Origin: a virus
Lineage: Duplodnaviria; Caudoviricetes
Virus record (IMG/VR): IMGVR_UViG_3300009164_000029
Span: 1-29,196 of that record
DNA: 29,196 bases
Strand: one strand, 5' to 3'
Shown here piece by piece: positions 7,784 through 27,679 of the stretch. Every line of letters starts with the position of its first letter. The stretch's first letter is position 1. Below the pieces are notes generated by a model. It was not told the DNA's origin, did not search any database, and was given only the letters and a program-made list of their open reading frames with translations. Made by a program: the position numbers and the translations under genes.

Positions 7784-9105
7784 TGAAATTATTTGGTTTT
7801 AACATAACAAGCAACAAGTCTATCGAATCGGTAGAGACAAGTGGCTATCAAGCCTTTTCTACTCCATTCATGAGAGTTGGTAGTGGCAATCTATCGTTGC
7901 CTTACATTAACGGTAGACAAACAGTCAACGGAAGAATTAGATTTGGAGATGATGATTTATATCCTCAAATGATTAACCAACTTTATTATACTTCACCGTT
8001 ACATAGTTCAATCGTTGACTTCAAAACTAACGCTACTATTGGAGGAGGTTATGACATCAAGATTAAAGACTTGAGTGCAGTTGATAAAGTAGATGTTTAT
8101 GCATTTGAAAAACGATTTGATTTAAAGAAATCTATCAACAAAATAACAAAAGACGTTATTCTACACAATCGTGTTTACTTTCATTTACGATTTAACCAAA
8201 GCGGTGACTTAGTAAAGGTAAAACATATAGGTGCAGAGAAAGTAAGACGTGATAAATTAGGAGAAAATTACTACTTGTGTGACGATTGGTCTAGTCAAAT
8301 CAACATTTTTACGATAGCACCTTATCACAGAACGTGCAAAGACTTGGAACAGTTGTATGTATGGGAAAACTTGCAAGTTGGTCAAGACATTTACCCGTTA
8401 CCAAGCTACACGAGTGCATTCAATTGGGCTTTCTTAGATGGTGAAATGAGTTACTTACAGAAGTCGAACATCTTAAATAGTATCTTTCCTTCATTTGCTA
8501 TGATGTTCCCTAAGAAGCCACAAAGTGAGGAAGAGAAAAGAGCAATTAAGGATACGATGGAGCGTGCAAAGGGAGCGCACAATGCTGGGAAAGGTGTTGC
8601 ATTCTTTGCTAATAACAAAGAGAGTCTACCAACTATAGAAAGTATACCTACAAACAACCTAGATAACGTCTTTCAAGTAACTACTGAATCGATTGATTCT
8701 AAGATTTGTCAAGCGCATACAATCGACCCTATATTAATGGGTATTCGTGTAAGTGGTAAACTAGGAAGCGGTAGCGACATTAAACAAGCCTATATCATTT
8801 TTGAGAAAAACACGATTATTCCATTGCGTGAAACAATCGCAGACATAGTAAATGACATTTTCAACATTGCTAACGTCAAAGCAAAAGTTGAAATCAACAA
8901 CTATCAAATCGTTAACGAGACAATCGTAGAAATAGAAGGAGATGCAAGTATGACATCTGACGCACTTAACGCTATGTCTCCATTGGTTGCTAACAAAGTA
9001 CTAGAATCTATGACAGACAACGAGATTCGTGCATTGGCTTCACTTCCTCCTGTTGAGGGTGGGGATGTAGTTAAATCACAACAATCAAACACAACTGCAC
9101 TATGA
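7783..9105 (+). CDS. Portal protein
   Basis: 440 aa; 'SPLHSSIVDFK...IGGG', 'GAHNAGK', 'ICQAHTI.P.LMGI...GKLG', 'MTDNEIRAL..LPPVEGGD' resemble HK97/PBSX-type portals. Confidence 0.85.
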   Translation: MKLFGFNITSNKSIESVETSGYQAFSTPFMRVGSGNLSLPYINGRQTVNGRIRFGDDDLYPQMINQLYYTSPLHSSIVDFKTNATIGGGYDIKIKDLSAVDKVDVYAFEKRFDLKKSINKITKDVILHNRVYFHLRFNQSGDLVKVKHIGAEKVRRDKLGENYYLCDDWSSQINIFTIAPYHRTCKDLEQLYVWENLQVGQDIYPLPSYTSAFNWAFLDGEMSYLQKSNILNSIFPSFAMMFPKKPQSEEEKRAIKDTMERAKGAHNAGKGVAFFANNKESLPTIESIPTNNLDNVFQVTTESIDSKICQAHTIDPILMGIRVSGKLGSGSDIKQAYIIFEKNTIIPLRETIADIVNDIFNIANVKAKVEINNYQIVNETIVEIEGDASMTSDALNAMSPLVANKVLESMTDNEIRALASLPPVEGGDVVKSQQSNTTAL

Positions 9106-13135: not shown

Positions 13136-13708
13136 ATGAACTTAGAAACTTACATTAATTTTACGAAGAAGTGGGAAGGCGGTCTATCTCGTGACACTTC
13201 TGATTCAGCAAGTTCTTATCCATGTCCAACGATGCATAAAGGTATCAAAGGATATCATACAAATGTAGGGATTACTTATAAAGTTTGGGTTTCAGTTTTT
13301 GGAAAAGAAAACGATACACGATTCTTTATTATGTCTGGTGAAGATTGGTTTAAAGTATTCAAATCATTGTATTGGGATAGCGTAAAAGGAGACGATTACA
13401 AGTGTTTTTCTATTGCGGTAATAGTAACAGGTATGGCTTGGGGTTCGGGCGCATCTAGAGCGGGTAAAACGCTACAAAAAGCAATCAATAATTTAGGACT
13501 TCAAGTTGCAATTGATGGCAACATCGGTAATAAGACAATCGCAGCTGCAAATGCTTTAAATGACACTCAACTATTCGATGAAATCATGAGACTTAGAATT
13601 GAATTTTTTAAAGCAATATCTGAGGAAGGAAGTAAAAACGCTAAATTTAGAAACGGTTGGTTAAATAGAGCCAAAGACTACATAAAGACCTTTAGACCTA
13701 CTAACTAA
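13136..13708 (+). CDS. Endolysin, glycoside hydrolase family 108-like
   Basis: N-terminal 'WEGG' catalytic motif, 'TNVGIT', 'DGNIGNKT', C-terminal 'KFRNGWLNR' peptidoglycan-binding motif. Confidence 0.88.
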   Translation: MNLETYINFTKKWEGGLSRDTSDSASSYPCPTMHKGIKGYHTNVGITYKVWVSVFGKENDTRFFIMSGEDWFKVFKSLYWDSVKGDDYKCFSIAVIVTGMAWGSGASRAGKTLQKAINNLGLQVAIDGNIGNKTIAAANALNDTQLFDEIMRLRIEFFKAISEEGSKNAKFRNGWLNRAKDYIKTFRPTN

Positions 13709-13720
13709 GTAGGTTTTTTT
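13695..13720 (+). terminator. Intrinsic terminator at the end of the lysis operon
   Basis: GACCTACT-aacta-AGTAGGTT followed by a T tract, overlapping the endolysin stop codon. Confidence 0.75.
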
Positions 13721-13831: not shown

Positions 13832-14602
13832 ATGAAAAAAAGAATGTTTTTCGATATTGAGACTTCCTTTAACATCGGTATCTTTTGGAGAAGTGGCTAC
13901 AATCTAACTATTCAACCAGATGACATCATAAAAGAGCGTGCAATTATTTGCGTTAGTTGGAAGTGGGAAGGAAAAGACCAAGTACATAATTTAACGTGGG
14001 ACTCAAACCAATGCGATAAGAAACTGCTTAAAGCCTTTATTAAAGAACTCAATAAAGCAGATGAAATAATCGCACACAACGGAGATAGATTTGATATCAA
14101 ATGGCTTCGTACACGTTGCTTGTTTCATGGCTTGGAAATGTTTCCTCAGTACCAAAGTATTGACACTCTTAAACACGCTAAAAGTCAGTTTAATTTTAAC
14201 TCTAATAAACTAGATTACATAGCTAAATTTCTTGGTGTTGGTGCAAAGCTGAAACATGAAGGTATGGATATGTGGAAGTCAATTATTTTTAACAAAGATG
14301 CAGATTCTCTTAAAAGAATGGTGGAATATTGTGACCAAGATGTAGTTATCCTAGAAAAAGTATACGAGAAGCTACAACCGTACACAAAGCCAAAAGTAAA
14401 CTATTCTGTTCTAAGAGGTGGAGAAAAGTTTGGATGTCCAAATTGCCAAAGCTACGAGATACGATTAAGAAAAACATACACTACTCCAGCTGGAACTATT
14501 CAGCACTACATGAGTTGTAATTCATGCAATAAATCAAGCTACAAAATAAACAACAAAACATTTATAGACTATTTACAATGGAAAATGAAGAATAATTTGT
14601 AA
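13832..14602 (+). CDS. RNase H-fold (DnaQ/YprB-like) 3'-5' exonuclease with C-terminal zinc ribbon
   Basis: ExoI 'FDIET', ExoII 'HNGDRFD', ExoIII 'YCDQDV'; CPNC...CNSC. Confidence 0.85.
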   Translation: MKKRMFFDIETSFNIGIFWRSGYNLTIQPDDIIKERAIICVSWKWEGKDQVHNLTWDSNQCDKKLLKAFIKELNKADEIIAHNGDRFDIKWLRTRCLFHGLEMFPQYQSIDTLKHAKSQFNFNSNKLDYIAKFLGVGAKLKHEGMDMWKSIIFNKDADSLKRMVEYCDQDVVILEKVYEKLQPYTKPKVNYSVLRGGEKFGCPNCQSYEIRLRKTYTTPAGTIQHYMSCNSCNKSSYKINNKTFIDYLQWKMKNNL

Positions 14603-14610
14603 ATTTGCGA

Positions 14611-14671
14611 GAATCATAGTTCATAATTTTGTTTGTGTTAGGTTAAGCCCTCGCTTCGGTGGGGGTTTTTT
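14611..14671 (+). ncRNA. Candidate small antisense RNA complementary to early-gene start-codon regions
   Basis: Lies between TAAATTTG (14600-14607, -7 consensus) and a terminator. The reverse complement of 14614-14637 (CACAAACAAAATTATGAACTATGA) matches the start regions at 14821 (14/14), 17193 (16/17), 18939 (10/10) and others. The 5' end is approximate. Confidence 0.5.
14645..14671 (+). terminator. Intrinsic terminator with C(UUCG)G tetraloop
   Basis: AAGCCCTCGC-TTCG-GTGGGGGTTT followed by T; three G-U pairs mean it folds well only on the + strand. Confidence 0.85.
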
Positions 14672-14677
14672 AGTTTA

Positions 14678-14719
14678 TCTACGTAGTTTTACGTATATTC
14701 TTCTACGTAGTTTTACGTA
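14678..14719. repeat. Two 18-bp direct repeats TCTACGTAGTTTTACGTA
   Basis: Exact copies at 14678-14695 and 14702-14719, each with two TACGTA palindromes 10 bp apart. Confidence 0.9.
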
Positions 14720-14755
14720 ATTTACCCTTATTTTGCACTTTTATTAACAAAAATG

Positions 14756-14785
14756 TTTGTAAGTTAAATAATTGTAGTATGTTTG
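14756..14785 (+). promoter_or_regulatory. Early promoter, Bacteroidota housekeeping-type
   Basis: TTTG (14756-14759), 18-nt spacer, TATGTTTG (14778-14785); upstream of the small early ORF cluster. Confidence 0.7.
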
Positions 14786-14820
14786 TAAGGTCAATAAGGC
14801 ACAAACAAAAAAACAAAATT

Positions 14821-14973
14821 ATGACAACTCAAGAAGTTTTAAAATTAAAAAGAAAATCAGTAGTAAGTAAAATAAATTCAACTCCTGAAACACCATCTTT
14901 CACTTCTGAATTAAGAAAATTATGGAAAGAATTAAGAGTAATTGATGAGCAAATTAAAACATTAAACAAATAA
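14821..14973 (+). CDS. Small early hypothetical protein (50 aa)
   Basis: ATG 14821 with A-rich leader; the ATG at 14779 lies inside the promoter. Confidence 0.65.
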   Translation: MTTQEVLKLKRKSVVSKINSTPETPSFTSELRKLWKELRVIDEQIKTLNK

Positions 14974-15426: not shown

Positions 15427-15654
15427 ATGAAAAGTAGAGTAATTGAATTACAAGAAAAAGCTAACAAAATTTTGCAGATGGCTCAAGATATGGATAAGCG
15501 TATTGAGTTGGTTAAATCATGGACAGAACTTACATATATGCCAAAATGGTATATTGAAAAAAAAGAGAACGAGTTATATTGTTGTCAACGTGGAAGTAAA
15601 AGATTATGGTCAGCATACCTTCAAGTATTAACACAAATAAAATTAGAATTATGA
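15427..15654 (+). CDS. Hypothetical protein
   Basis: 75 aa, helical character, A-rich leader. Confidence 0.7.
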   Translation: MKSRVIELQEKANKILQMAQDMDKRIELVKSWTELTYMPKWYIEKKENELYCCQRGSKRLWSAYLQVLTQIKLEL

Positions 15655-15887
15655 TTATTATAGAACTAACAGAAGACTTTGCAAAGGTCTTAATTAACGG
15701 AAAAGAATTTGATATTTCAATTCACCAACCTTCACAAGAAATCATTTTAGACATCAGCTTCCTTCGTGAGTTTAAAAACTTCAACGAAATGAATGAGTGT
15801 GAAGATTGTGAGCAAGGATGGGTAGACGATGGCGAAGGAGATGAAAGCCATTTTGTACGATGTGAATGTCAACCTAAAATAAAATAA
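15651..15887 (+). CDS. Hypothetical protein with C-terminal CxxC...CxC
   Basis: ATG 15651 overlaps the previous stop (ATGA); CEDC...CEC. Confidence 0.65.
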   Translation: MIIIELTEDFAKVLINGKEFDISIHQPSQEIILDISFLREFKNFNEMNECEDCEQGWVDDGEGDESHFVRCECQPKIK

Positions 15888-17148: not shown

Positions 17149-17192
17149 TTAACAAAATTGTTTATATTTACAAAAAACAAAAATTAAGAACT

Positions 17193-17756
17193 ATGAAAAA
17201 AGAAGAATTTGAGGATTTGATTCCTAAGCCACAAACACTTTGGTTTAAATTGTGGAAGGCTAAACAAGAAATTGGCAAAGTATCTAAAGGAAAAGACAAT
17301 CCTTTCTTTAAATCAAAATACGCTGATTTAAACGCACTTCTAGAAGCGACTGAACCAATCCTACTAAAATACGATTTGATACTATTACAACCGATTGTGA
17401 ACGGTTATGTATGCACTAGAATAATTGATATCGAAAGCGGAGAATTTGTAGAAAGTAGTTTATTGCTGCCTGTGGTTAATGACCCTCAAAAACAAATCGC
17501 TGGCGTTACCTACTTCCGTAGAGCGACCATACAATCGTTGTTAAGTCTTCAAGCAATTGATGACGATGGAAACGAAATTGCAAAGACAGTTAAAAACACG
17601 AAGCCTGCAATCACGCTTGAACGATTTGAAAAAGCACTAAAAGCAGTTGAAAATGGAGATGCTACAAAAGAAGATGTTTTAAAATTTGATTTAACTCCAG
17701 AACAAATAATTGAATTAAAAAACGTTAGATTAAAAGGTGTCGTATATGAAAAATAA
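17193..17756 (+). CDS. erf: Erf-family single-strand annealing protein
   Basis: 'K...NPFFKSKYADL', 'DPQ......TYFRR', 'DDDGN' motifs. Confidence 0.85.
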   Translation: MKKEEFEDLIPKPQTLWFKLWKAKQEIGKVSKGKDNPFFKSKYADLNALLEATEPILLKYDLILLQPIVNGYVCTRIIDIESGEFVESSLLLPVVNDPQKQIAGVTYFRRATIQSLLSLQAIDDDGNEIAKTVKNTKPAITLERFEKALKAVENGDATKEDVLKFDLTPEQIIELKNVRLKGVVYEK

Positions 17757-18727: not shown

Positions 18728-18922
18728 ATGGAATGTTATAAACTAATTGTATACAAGAACGGAAAGCCTATTTTTTATGTATTTTCAGCAAAAGACGAAG
18801 CAGAAAAACAATTAAAATTAAAGGCTTGGAAGTTGGAAAACATTACACCTTATGATAAAGTAGAACTTTTATTTTTAGGCACGATTGAAGAACACGAACA
18901 ACTGATTAAAAAAAGTAATTAA
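18728..18922 (+). CDS. Hypothetical protein
   Basis: 64 aa from ATG 18728. Confidence 0.55.
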   Translation: MECYKLIVYKNGKPIFYVFSAKDEAEKQLKLKAWKLENITPYDKVELLFLGTIEEHEQLIKKSN

Positions 18923-18938
18923 ACAAACAGAATGAACT

Positions 18939-19367
18939 ATGGCACAAAACAAAAAGTCTTTTGTCCTGTATGCTGACCTTATAAAAAGCATTGAACATCT
19001 GACAAATGAAGAGAAAGGTATTTTGTTTAATCACTTGCTGGAATACGTCAACGACATGAATCCAATTCTTACAGATAGACTTGTTCTAACTGCATGGAAA
19101 CCAATCGAAATACAACTCAAAAGGGACTTAATAAAGTTTGAGGAAGTGAAGCATAGCAGAAGCATTTCGGGTAAGGCTGGAGCAGAGAAAAGATGGCAAA
19201 AAATGGCAAACGATAGCAAAGGCATACAAGCTATAGCAAAAATAGCTGATAATGATAATGATAATGTAAATGTAATAAATAGCAAAGCGGATGTAATCAG
19301 CACCGACCAATGGGGTAATCAAATTGATATTAACGGCTTTCACATAAAAACAAAAAATAAAAGATGA
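18939..19367 (+). CDS. Putative replication initiator (DUF6291-like N-terminus)
   Basis: 'KKSFVLY.D.....HLTNEEKG.LF..LLEY', '...SGKAGAEKRW', 'DNDNDNVNV' pattern of phage replisome organisers; upstream of the helicase; contains iteron-like repeats. Confidence 0.65.
   Translation: MAQNKKSFVLYADLIKSIEHLTNEEKGILFNHLLEYVNDMNPILTDRLVLTAWKPIEIQLKRDLIKFEEVKHSRSISGKAGAEKRWQKMANDSKGIQAIAKIADNDNDNVNVINSKADVISTDQWGNQIDINGFHIKTKNKR
19153..19286 (+). repeat. Iteron-like ATRGCAAA repeats plus AT-rich (GATAAT)3; candidate replication origin
   Basis: ATRGCAAA at 19193, 19203, 19213, 19233 (10-bp phase), 7/8 match at 19153, another copy at 19279; GATAAT x3 at 19248-19265. Confidence 0.65.
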
Positions 19368-23011: not shown

Positions 23012-23260
23012 ATGGAATTACTCTTACTCGTATCTTTTGCTTGGTGGTTTACTAACTTTGAACCACTTCAAAACGCTTTAGATTACATATTTGCACGATT
23101 GCATTTTAACTATGTCACAAACGCATTACATAGTTATTTAGGTTGCATTAAATGCGTTGCATTTTGGTCTTCATTACTTGTTAGTGGAGACTTTTTTCTT
23201 TCATGCCTTGTTTCTTTAACCGCTTACATTTTACAACTATGTTTGGACAAGATGAACTGA
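23012..23260 (+). CDS. Small membrane protein with CxxC
   Basis: 82 aa, hydrophobic, 'LGCIKCVAFW'. Confidence 0.65.
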   Translation: MELLLLVSFAWWFTNFEPLQNALDYIFARLHFNYVTNALHSYLGCIKCVAFWSSLLVSGDFFLSCLVSLTAYILQLCLDKMN

Positions 23261-23442
23261 TATTTATCGAAAGTTTGCGAGATGCGGATGAGGTGACACG
23301 TACGGCAAAGGTGACATTGAATAGGCTCAAGGCTATAAAAACACGAATCACAAACGAAGTAGACAAAGAATGCTTCTGTTCAAGTGTTAGAAGAAAGATT
23401 TGGTACAAGAACTTTATTGAATGGTATGAAAGCACTACTTGA
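23239..23442 (+). CDS. Hypothetical protein with CxC
   Basis: 67 aa from ATG 23239; 'KECFCSSVRRK'. Confidence 0.6.
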   Translation: MFGQDELIFIESLRDADEVTRTAKVTLNRLKAIKTRITNEVDKECFCSSVRRKIWYKNFIEWYESTT

Positions 23443-23959
23443 CAACTACATCCAACGAAACTACAAAGAGGTAAACAGGTACACTAACTACTTCTTACAT
23501 CGTTTAAAGTCAAAGCTAAATGCTGACACAGTTATAAACAATGCCTATCTAAGAACACTTCAATACAAAGGAGTAATAATCGAGGAGTATGAAGCAAAAG
23601 CATTATTATTTGAATCAATAAAAGCGGAGGTACTTTGGAATAGTGAGAGCAAGAAAGAATTGATTAACTCAGTTGAAAGTGATTATATTCCAGAAGTGGA
23701 AGATACCGACCTAGCAGAAAAGATTTTACTTGAACTAAAATACAACGAGCAAAAGAACATAATAGAATTATATCGCAGTCAAATCAACGATAGAGTAAAA
23801 CTATATTTCTTCCAAGCGTACTACGATAAAGGCATCTGCACAACAAGACGAATAGCTGAACACTTCAACATCAGCACCGCGTCTGCTCATTTGTTGATAG
23901 TAGAAATGAAAGAGGAAATAAGAAACTACGAAAACACGAATAAAATAAATACAATATAA
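23426..23959 (+). CDS. Putative ECF-like RNA polymerase sigma factor
   Basis: 177 aa. Region-2-like 'Y.EV.RY...FL......ADTVINNAYL', acidic linker, region-4-like HTH 'FQAYY.KG..TTRRIAEHFNISTASAHLLI..MKEEI'. Confidence 0.65.
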   Translation: MKALLDNYIQRNYKEVNRYTNYFLHRLKSKLNADTVINNAYLRTLQYKGVIIEEYEAKALLFESIKAEVLWNSESKKELINSVESDYIPEVEDTDLAEKILLELKYNEQKNIIELYRSQINDRVKLYFFQAYYDKGICTTRRIAEHFNISTASAHLLIVEMKEEIRNYENTNKINTI

Positions 23960-23961
23960 TT

Positions 23962-24138
23962 ATGAGCAAATACATTTTAACATTAGCGTACATACTGTTT
24001 TTAGGATATGCAATGGGACTAATATACGACTACTTACACACTAACAAGATTCTCGGTGTAGGAATAATTCTCTACTTAACAGGAAGTGTAGTGCAACAAT
24101 TAGAAATAAACCAAGAATATGACGAATATGAAGATTAA
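23962..24138 (+). CDS. Small 2-TM membrane protein (58 aa, below the ORF-track cutoff)
   Basis: MSKYILTLAYILFLGYAMGLIY...ILGVGIILYLTGSVV...EYDEYED*; fills the gap after the sigma-like gene. Confidence 0.65.
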   Translation: MSKYILTLAYILFLGYAMGLIYDYLHTNKILGVGIILYLTGSVVQQLEINQEYDEYED

Positions 24139-24364
24139 AGAACAATGGAAAGGAAAGACTTTAATTAGTTATGACCCAATACTCGGAGAGCGCAGAATCG
24201 AAGTAGATAAAATTCAAGCAAAGGATATCGCACGTCTCAAAAAGATGGGTTACTCTTACATCTTTGAAGAGGTAGAAATCAAACCAATCGCATTTGAAGG
24301 AATAGAGCAAGAAGCACCAATCAAGAAACCTAGAAAAAAACGAACTATAAATGCCAAAGATTAG
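24128..24364 (+). CDS. Hypothetical protein
   Basis: 78 aa (alternative start 24119), basic C-terminus. Confidence 0.65.
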   Translation: MKIKEQWKGKTLISYDPILGERRIEVDKIQAKDIARLKKMGYSYIFEEVEIKPIAFEGIEQEAPIKKPRKKRTINAKD

Positions 24365-26245: not shown

Positions 26246-27679
26246 ATGGCAATTACAATTGAAGGACAACCACAAGTACTGACACCAGGATACAATCCTA
26301 TGATGTACTACTTGAGCAGCACAAACGTTAACGAGTTAGGCTTCCGTTACATTGTTGAAGTATACATTGCAGGAACTGGCACAAAGTTATTCGAAAAGAG
26401 ATACGCACCAAGACCTGTAGATGGCTTTGCAGAGATAAATATTTCACGAGACATTCAAAGTTACTTAAGTGCCAACGAGCCTTTTGGATTAGAATCGTTG
26501 AATGCTACAAATCACTACTTAAAGTTTGATATCAAGTTTGGTGAGGAGTATCGAGTAGCGTGGGACTTCACAGATTTTATCTTCAACAACGGACAAACGG
26601 GATTTTGGCAAGTACCTAATATTACACCGCATCCTTTTGTATTAGGTGACCAAATCAGCGTAGTATTAGATTCTCCTCCTGGAGATTTCAGAGATGCGCT
26701 TGAAGGTCAGTTCTCAGTCATTGAAGTAGTAGATGCATACAACATAACAACCTCTTTGGCTTGGATTGGAAGTGGCTTAGCATTAACAGGCAAGATATAT
26801 TATTCTGATAATCGAAAGTCACGCTTTACAAATCTAGCAAATATATCAACTCAGACTGCTTTTAACGGTGCTTTGGATATGCGACAATTCAAAGACTACG
26901 ATTATACGTTCTACTCTCTTGATGGAGATGGTCAGTTTTTGACAACTCAACCTAGAGATTTTAGAGTGACGTTAACACAAGACATTTGGACTGCTTACTT
27001 TCACAACTACTTGCCATTTGGTCGTAGAATGTATTTTGAAACTAGCACAGGAAATATTGGTTATAAATCGATTTCTTCGTCTAATACGGTTGGGGTAGGT
27101 CTAGCAAATGTCGGAGGAAGTGGACTAGATTACTTGACGATGGTAGTCGGTACTTTGCCTTTGATTGATGATGATGTTGAGTGGTACGAGTATTATTTAT
27201 GTGATACGGCAGCAACTGAATTAAGCATTAGAAAAAGAGTGTACATTAATCGTACTTGTTCAATTGAATATTATGAGATTCTATTCTTGGATAGACTAGG
27301 TTCGTTCAGTTCTTTCCCATTTCAGTTACGTTCGATTGATAAAGGAAACGTACAACGGATGAGTTACAACAAGAAGTTTGGAGATGTCAACACTACTACC
27401 AACACTTTTGATTTTAACACTTGGGATAGCGGAAGAACTACTTACCACATAGACCTAAGCAAAGACTTAACACTTAACACTAATTGGTTGACTGATTCTG
27501 AAAGCGTTTACTTCGAAGAGTTAATAACGAGCGGTTTTACATACGTTAAGATTGAAGACAGATACTACGCTTGTCAAGTGCAAGAAACTAGCTTTGAAGT
27601 GCAGAGACAGAAGAACAAGAATTTGATTAGAAAGACTATTAACGTAAGGCTATCAGTTGACACACCAATAAACGTATGA
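26246..27679 (+). CDS. Virion tail protein (distal-tail/baseplate-like)
   Basis: 477 aa, beta-rich; C-terminal 'FLDRLG....F.F', 'LNTNWL.......EELITS'; first gene of the tail operon. Confidence 0.6.
   Translation: MAITIEGQPQVLTPGYNPMMYYLSSTNVNELGFRYIVEVYIAGTGTKLFEKRYAPRPVDGFAEINISRDIQSYLSANEPFGLESLNATNHYLKFDIKFGEEYRVAWDFTDFIFNNGQTGFWQVPNITPHPFVLGDQISVVLDSPPGDFRDALEGQFSVIEVVDAYNITTSLAWIGSGLALTGKIYYSDNRKSRFTNLANISTQTAFNGALDMRQFKDYDYTFYSLDGDGQFLTTQPRDFRVTLTQDIWTAYFHNYLPFGRRMYFETSTGNIGYKSISSSNTVGVGLANVGGSGLDYLTMVVGTLPLIDDDVEWYEYYLCDTAATELSIRKRVYINRTCSIEYYEILFLDRLGSFSSFPFQLRSIDKGNVQRMSYNKKFGDVNTTTNTFDFNTWDSGRTTYHIDLSKDLTLNTNWLTDSESVYFEELITSGFTYVKIEDRYYACQVQETSFEVQRQKNKNLIRKTINVRLSVDTPINV

Follow-up and report, generated by a model that had tools for sequence, protein, structure and literature searches.

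Introduction

The closest described relatives of the element reported here are the FopS small RNAs of B. thetaiotaomicron. In the accessible part of the source, these consist of a single-stranded 5' stretch and a terminator, are transcribed from sigma-ABfr promoters, and pair near start codons with translation being blocked (PMC11697453). Their consensus includes CAUAG and AGGUUAA, FopS-14 is derived from a 3' UTR, one FopS copy is located in a Caudovirales phage, and FopS both represses SusC transporter mRNAs and binds RbpB; pairing near start codons is shared in Bacteroides by GibS, MasB and BatR (same partial text, PMC11697453). Initiation in Bacteroidota is described, in the available sections of two further reports, as relying on A-rich leaders with A at -3 that replace Shine-Dalgarno pairing (PMC6847099, PMC7366714). 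Because such leaders are shared among genes, one short RNA can address many of them, for which the action of FopS on host transporters provides a precedent.

C4 of phages P1 and P7 is a structured, processed RNA of temperate phages with one target operon, and the immunity specificity of P1 and P7 is set by a few matched changes in this RNA and its target. The present element resembles C4, as far as the accessible text describes it, in being a predicted phage-encoded, trans-acting antisense RNA directed at the phage's own genes (ant in the case of C4; PMC8201110). It differs in its simple layout of arm plus terminator and in having several predicted targets, and since Rfam finds no match to the C4 family in the window, C4 is a functional analogue only.

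Here we describe a conserved element in the window, which is the whole stretch of viral DNA analysed (29,196 nucleotides, IMG/VR record IMGVR_UViG_3300009164_000029). A sequence-only reading had proposed that it encodes a small RNA which silences early genes by pairing across their start codons, and knew of no description of it. RNAs of this kind have in fact been described: FopS and GibS of Bacteroides share its anatomy and bind start-codon regions (PMC11697453, available text). Since this kind of RNA is already known, the gain lies in self-targeting and in the evidence from co-variation; our literature search, which subscription papers mostly fell outside, found no paper on an RNA with which a Bacteroidota phage targets early starts of its own.

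Anatomy and genome setting of the element

The window comprises a complete phage genome of 29 kb, which is circularly permuted and has a 123-nt terminal overlap and direct terminal repeats. It belongs to a freshwater or lake-type Bacteroidota phage, the TAnnTTTG boxes before its genes and its A-rich leaders pointing to a Bacteroidota host. No relatives of its 3'-5' exonuclease were found in GTDB genomes, and consequently no host or prophage was identified. The RNA element sits between the exonuclease gene, which a terminator at 13694-13716 sets apart as its own unit, and the early region (Table 1). The latter comprises small genes without an assigned role and genes for an Erf-like annealing protein, a recombination exonuclease, a DUF6291 protein, a methyltransferase, a DnaB-like helicase and NinG. 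For the first six proteins encoded there, neither Pfam nor PHROG gave a significant family, and no integrase was noticed among the annotated proteins (23 of the ORFs were scanned).

Table 1 Positions of the RNA element, its flanking features and its leading predicted targets in the window (energies in kcal/mol)
Feature	Position	Strand	Basis
3'-5' exonuclease gene (RNase H-like fold)	13832-14602	+	PHROG 403, E 6e-64; Pfam RNase_H_2; ORF list
Bacteroidota -7 box TAAATTTG, predicted promoter	14600-14607	+	Sequence; contains the only invariant columns of a 19-sequence alignment
U/G-rich 5' arm with CAU at 14615-17 and 14622-24 and FopS-like AGGUUAA at 14640-46	14611-14646	+	Sequence; FopS consensus
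Intrinsic terminator: 10-pair hairpin, UUCG loop, U tail	14645-14671	+	Terminator scan; layout constant, stem sequence varies in relatives
Predicted promoter at the head of the early region (TTTG, 18-nt spacer, TATGTTTG)	14756-14785	+	Sequence; position shared by relatives
Predicted target: leader and start of first early gene, -19.9	14800-14824	+	Duplex energy; recurrent top target in relatives
Top-scoring predicted target, -30.3 (-22.1 once opening is paid for): gene 15651 start, which overlaps the end of gene 15427	15629-15656	+	Weaker in relatives
Predicted target: leader and start (17193) of Erf-like annealing protein gene, -19.5 (net -14.1)	17175-17196	+	Recurrent, co-varying in relatives
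Predicted target: start (18939) of DUF6291 gene, -21.5 (net -16.1)	18922-18941	+	Duplex energy

Both the -7 box and the + strand UUCG terminator that the sequence-only reading had noticed are present, the TA of the box being supplied by the TAA stop of the exonuclease gene. Judging from the position of the box, the RNA would start near 14611. The supposed weak -33 box fared less well: there is no TTTG at -33 spacing upstream of the -7 box. The arm had been described as unstructured, and it does fold little, although it is better called weakly folded, with about 3.5 kcal/mol required to open it. Arm plus terminator form a single-copy unit in the phage genome, whose other terminators are without such an arm.

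Predicted pairing with gene starts

The arm (14612-14644) was scored by duplex energy against windows of -25 to +12 around starts; six genes at 23012-24351 and the exonuclease gene were scored and set aside from the early/late comparison. Early starts gave a mean of -13.1 kcal/mol (n = 23) versus -9.2 kcal/mol for late starts (n = 21, p = 0.007), and internal ATGs averaged -9.9 kcal/mol (n = 489, p = 0.005 versus early starts). When the arm was subjected to dinucleotide shuffling, none of 1000 shuffles matched the early mean, the mean of the top eight sites, the best site or the early-late gap. The late mean was matched by 240 of the 1000, and shuffles that retained two CAT triplets likewise failed to match the early mean (0/167). 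The enrichment at start codons and the bias for early over late genes proposed from the sequence are thus borne out.

The exact matches listed at early starts by the sequence-only reading are all present, the site at 17180-17196 matches at 16/17, and AA(T/C)T-ATG-A is indeed how each of the first five early genes begins. This octamer has eight + strand copies, every one of them at a gene start and seven at early genes. The 15651 start, given as an 8/8 match, in fact extends across 28 nt, with 26 identities, two G-U pairs and a single bulge, and is the best of 9628 genome windows. At 18932-18941 the 10/10 match exists as described; the gene, which had been put forward as a putative replication initiator, is the DUF6291 gene. 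The start at 9102 had been singled out as the only comparable one among the structural and lysis starts that the sequence-only reading had checked, and it does pair comparably (-15.7 kcal/mol), but the structural start at 27676 equals it (-16.8 kcal/mol).

Once opening costs are deducted, the leading sites are the starts at 15651, 18939 and 17193, in that order (Table 1); opening of the 14821 site would cost about 3.2 kcal/mol if its mRNA starts at the predicted promoter. Many early starts pair at background level and several non-start windows score near -20 kcal/mol; coverage of every early gene by the RNA is thus not expected.

Conservation in related phages

Exonuclease relatives were present at 138 loci, of which 86 distinct stretches were retained after removal of 45 duplicates and seven that were too short. 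Box, arm and terminator lie just after the stop in 76 of the 86, which bears out the conservation of position and layout that the sequence-only reading had named as a check; the element is real and conserved, and its observation is confirmed. A canonical TTTG box is found in 49 of the 76 elements (the other 27 boxes being non-canonical), CAT in 56 and an AGGU/GGUUA-like motif in 67. The ten misses comprise L308, L329 and L332, which are probably parsing misses, and seven that differ or are without the element, which is absent from L313, L342-344, L347, L011 and L064. Other non-coding elements, with different hairpins and no CAU arm, follow the exonuclease in L342-L344, L347, L009 and L064.

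The sole invariant columns of a 19-sequence alignment fall within the -7 box. Types B and E have the box 45-85 nt beyond the exonuclease stop. In L222, L217 and L248 a TATATTTG box and the element are retained behind a different upstream gene, which favours a promoter belonging to the element itself. In these three loci the exonuclease is replaced by a gene of 242-344 aa while the RNA element stays; the GDLH motif of the L248 gene is presumably metallophosphoesterase-like.

Two tandem CAU triplets had been put forward as the seed. Both are present in the window, but a tandem double seed is unsupported, as close relatives keep one CAU and 20 of the 76 elements have none. With CGU in type D and no CAU in types M and N, the double seed was rejected as a defining feature.

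Lineage-specific co-variation of arms and early leaders

For the co-variation matrix, 34 loci were picked by hand and 13 arm groups set by eye; L308 was dropped, leaving 33 loci, and L009 and the lineages without the element were left out. Each arm was scored against the downstream starts of each locus, with normalisation to internal ATGs; the arm groups are mutually related, and a simple rule served to call start codons. The top-3 z was -2.37 for own arms versus -1.38 for foreign arms (13 arm types, 33 loci). All 13 groups had a negative centred diagonal, the own arm was best in 9/13 by top-3 score and in 8/13 by all starts, and the own-arm effect was reached by none of 20000 permutations. 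This agrees with the earlier expectation that the arm would co-vary with start contexts in relatives. Internal ATGs showed no own-arm effect (p 0.40, 0.46), nor did the starts of late, lysis and exonuclease genes lying upstream (p 0.20, 0.25), and these null results indicate that the effect does not stem from genome composition. G-U compatible transitions made up 46/55 in own versus 1447/2105 in foreign alignments (p 0.01, the loci not being independent). Type D places CGU opposite AUG, and type M is without CAU yet mirrors its own ACTAACCAA leaders. This lineage-specific match between arms and their own early leaders, obtained with null controls, is new evidence in sequence comparisons for self-targeting.

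The recurrent targets in relatives are the leaders of erf and of the first early gene. In a comparison of five arm groups, four had their own arm as the best partner of erf (the exception being E, and one D sub-type tying with A2), and four had it as the best partner of the first early gene (the exception being B). The 15651 site was rejected as a conserved main target because it reaches only -19.9 kcal/mol in L063, whose arm is nearly identical to that of the window. In several lineages the best own starts attain just -14 to -19 kcal/mol with internal ATGs ranking equally high, and the arm of the window pairs on average almost equally well with the starts of some foreign lineages. Repeated inverted copying of a leader could be an alternative source of the co-variation.

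Comparison with FopS and with host genes

The element shares with FopS (RF04319) and GibS, as they appear in the accessible descriptions, a -7 box of the sigma-ABfr type, a single-stranded CAU arm, a downstream AGGUUAA, a terminator and predicted start-codon pairing. It is single-copy, whereas FopS forms multicopy paralogues, and where FopS is described with a constant seed and host PUL targets, the phage arm is variable between lineages and tracks the phage's own early leaders. Of the FopS R1/R1' seed the window has UCAUAGU and AGGUUAA but not the U-run before CAU or the consensus middle; types B and C come closer to the consensus. With regard to the sigma-ABfr promoter, the -7 box is present and conserved and the -33 TTTG is absent, a motif likewise absent from Flavobacterium RNA-seq results in the available part of that study (PMC7366714). 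RF04319 gave no match in the window at E<=10, the gathering threshold being 56 bits, and the syntenic loci L026 and L017 scored 29.9 and 28.7 bits against this cut-off. An Rfam scan of the whole window returned no matches at E<=1, and a local scan returned weak, terminator-driven matches alone. By prediction the element is FopS-like, and by the Rfam test it is outside the FopS family.

A FopS-like DNA pattern matched 121 GTDB stretches, 104 of them titled Bacteroidota, and 88 viral ones. As a census of the family this pattern was rejected as unreliable, since few matches had both box and terminator (18/121 genome, 30/88 viral). Sub-threshold RF04319 matches occurred in six of 20 pattern stretches, and none exceeded the cut-off in five genomes. 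The pattern coincides with reverse-strand ORF starts in 41/88 viral and 41/121 genome matches: in sequence terms, a FopS-type arm mirrors a type of leader that is common in Bacteroidota. Natural leaders often carry a TTAACC-type motif 10-20 nt ahead of their ATG (pattern matches L072-L280). One Flavobacteriales genome holds a FopS-like unit, complete with -7 box and terminator, that scores 30.9 bits (L348, G002:C11:53084-53162), which suggests that FopS-type RNAs exist outside Bacteroidaceae.

The sequence-only reading had further suggested that host mRNAs with the same start context might perhaps be silenced. This was assessed on 13 stretches (about 216 kb) from four stand-in Bacteroidota genomes. 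None of 157 stand-in host starts reached <= -19 kcal/mol versus 4/23 own early starts, and three of 157 versus 8/23 reached <= -15 kcal/mol; stand-in host starts paired no better than internal ATGs. Broad host silencing is thus unsupported, and a universal anti-start RNA was rejected on these stand-ins.

Proposed function and alternative explanations

The explanation that we consider probable is that the phage carries a FopS-like sRNA gene whose predicted transcript of ~60 nt would pair with several of its own early leaders and starts and lower their translation. Host sigma-ABfr polymerase would start near 14611 and stop at the hairpin, and a stable ~60-nt RNA would accumulate during infection. 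Its arm would cover the A-rich leader and AUG, used by Bacteroidota ribosomes in place of a Shine-Dalgarno site. The first early gene, the Erf recombinase and DUF6291 genes and a few others would be damped as the phage shifts to late expression. The original proposal of a trans-acting sRNA blocking early genes is thus partly supported, by enrichment, early bias, conservation and co-variation, whereas the tandem seed and the broad silencing of the host are not.

This proposal has to be weighed against other readings of the locus. The same pairing could be exerted by the exonuclease mRNA, intact or after processing, through its 3' end, with the -7 box being no working promoter. The overlap of the box TA with the stop codon, the missing -33 TTTG, the isolation of the exonuclease gene by the terminator at 13694-13716 and the 3' UTR origin of FopS-14 (PMC11697453, partial text) are in its favour. 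We nevertheless consider it unlikely, given that the box columns alone are invariant, that the box of types B and E stands well beyond the stop, that a box persists behind a different gene in L222, L217 and L248, and that the -33 motif is also missing in the accessible Flavobacterium RNA-seq results (PMC7366714). If the locus were just a plain terminator preceded by a U-rich tract, or an inverted leader copy that does nothing, the complementarity would be a by-product of shared leader motifs and copying. The genome's other terminators lack such an arm, which keeps a fixed place between box and hairpin in 76/86 stretches while arms diverge, and the effect is confined to early starts with a G-U compatible bias. 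This account is therefore quite improbable, even though the sequence is A/T-rich and the arm, viewed from the opposite strand, looks like a natural leader of Bacteroidota, 41/88 viral and 41/121 genome matches to the FopS-like pattern being reverse-strand ORF starts.

That the arms follow phage leaders lineage by lineage also speaks against an RNA directed mainly at the host, be it a FopS mimic repressing host mRNAs (transporters or receptors) or an RbpB-type decoy. We regard this as a distinctly doubtful option, the stand-in starts at <= -19 kcal/mol numbering 0/157 in a sample of ~216 kb, although a few specific host targets may exist. Its support comes from the SusC repression and RbpB binding reported for FopS in the accessible text (PMC11697453), from the Flavobacteriales unit of L348 and from the AGGU/GGUUA-type motif before the terminator that is retained in 67/76 elements. 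Finally, the sequence-only reading had itself raised the leader of a translated minus-strand mini-ORF. The minus strand does offer a good leader, with ATGs that open 14- and 20-codon ORFs, and a TAATTTTG box at 14821. However, the ORFs from the CAT triplets span 2-38 codons, are unrelated between groups and are absent in types D, J, M and N, and the box on this strand arises incidentally from the leader of the first gene and is lost in A2 relatives. No conserved ORF was found, and this candidate, which we consider extremely improbable, was rejected.

If the favoured self-targeting sRNA is correct, these phages would possess a protein-free early shut-off (or kin exclusion) on a FopS scaffold, and FopS-type RNAs would extend well beyond gut Bacteroidaceae. 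A more speculative extension, which we think rather unlikely, is that in widespread small Bacteroidota phages a FopS-type RNA would be a self-aimed master switch, turning many early genes off through a leader code of the lineage. Because arm and leaders co-evolve, such a switch would also silence close kin and give RNA-coded superinfection immunity groups without a repressor protein. The 13 lineages would supply natural matched arm/leader pairs for specificity tests.

Further sequence features of the locus

An AACA-N4-TGTT palindrome occurs at 14746-14757 and 17151-17162, just upstream of both predicted early promoters (those of the first early gene and of erf), and also at 1149 and 19694. The copy before erf is retained in type A, A2 and several C relatives, and the palindrome is a candidate operator. 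Two 24-nt tandem units built on TACGTA palindromes lie 3' of the terminator (14677-14722); these are found in the closest relatives, and other relatives have replacements. The first early gene (14778-14824 region) varies among close relatives while its promoter and leader are nearly identical, which suggests cassette exchange at shared leaders. In types M/J (L328, L331, L337, L317 and L327) the terminator loop contains the anti-leader motif in a GGUUAGU-rich copy, which may be a second, loop-borne seed.
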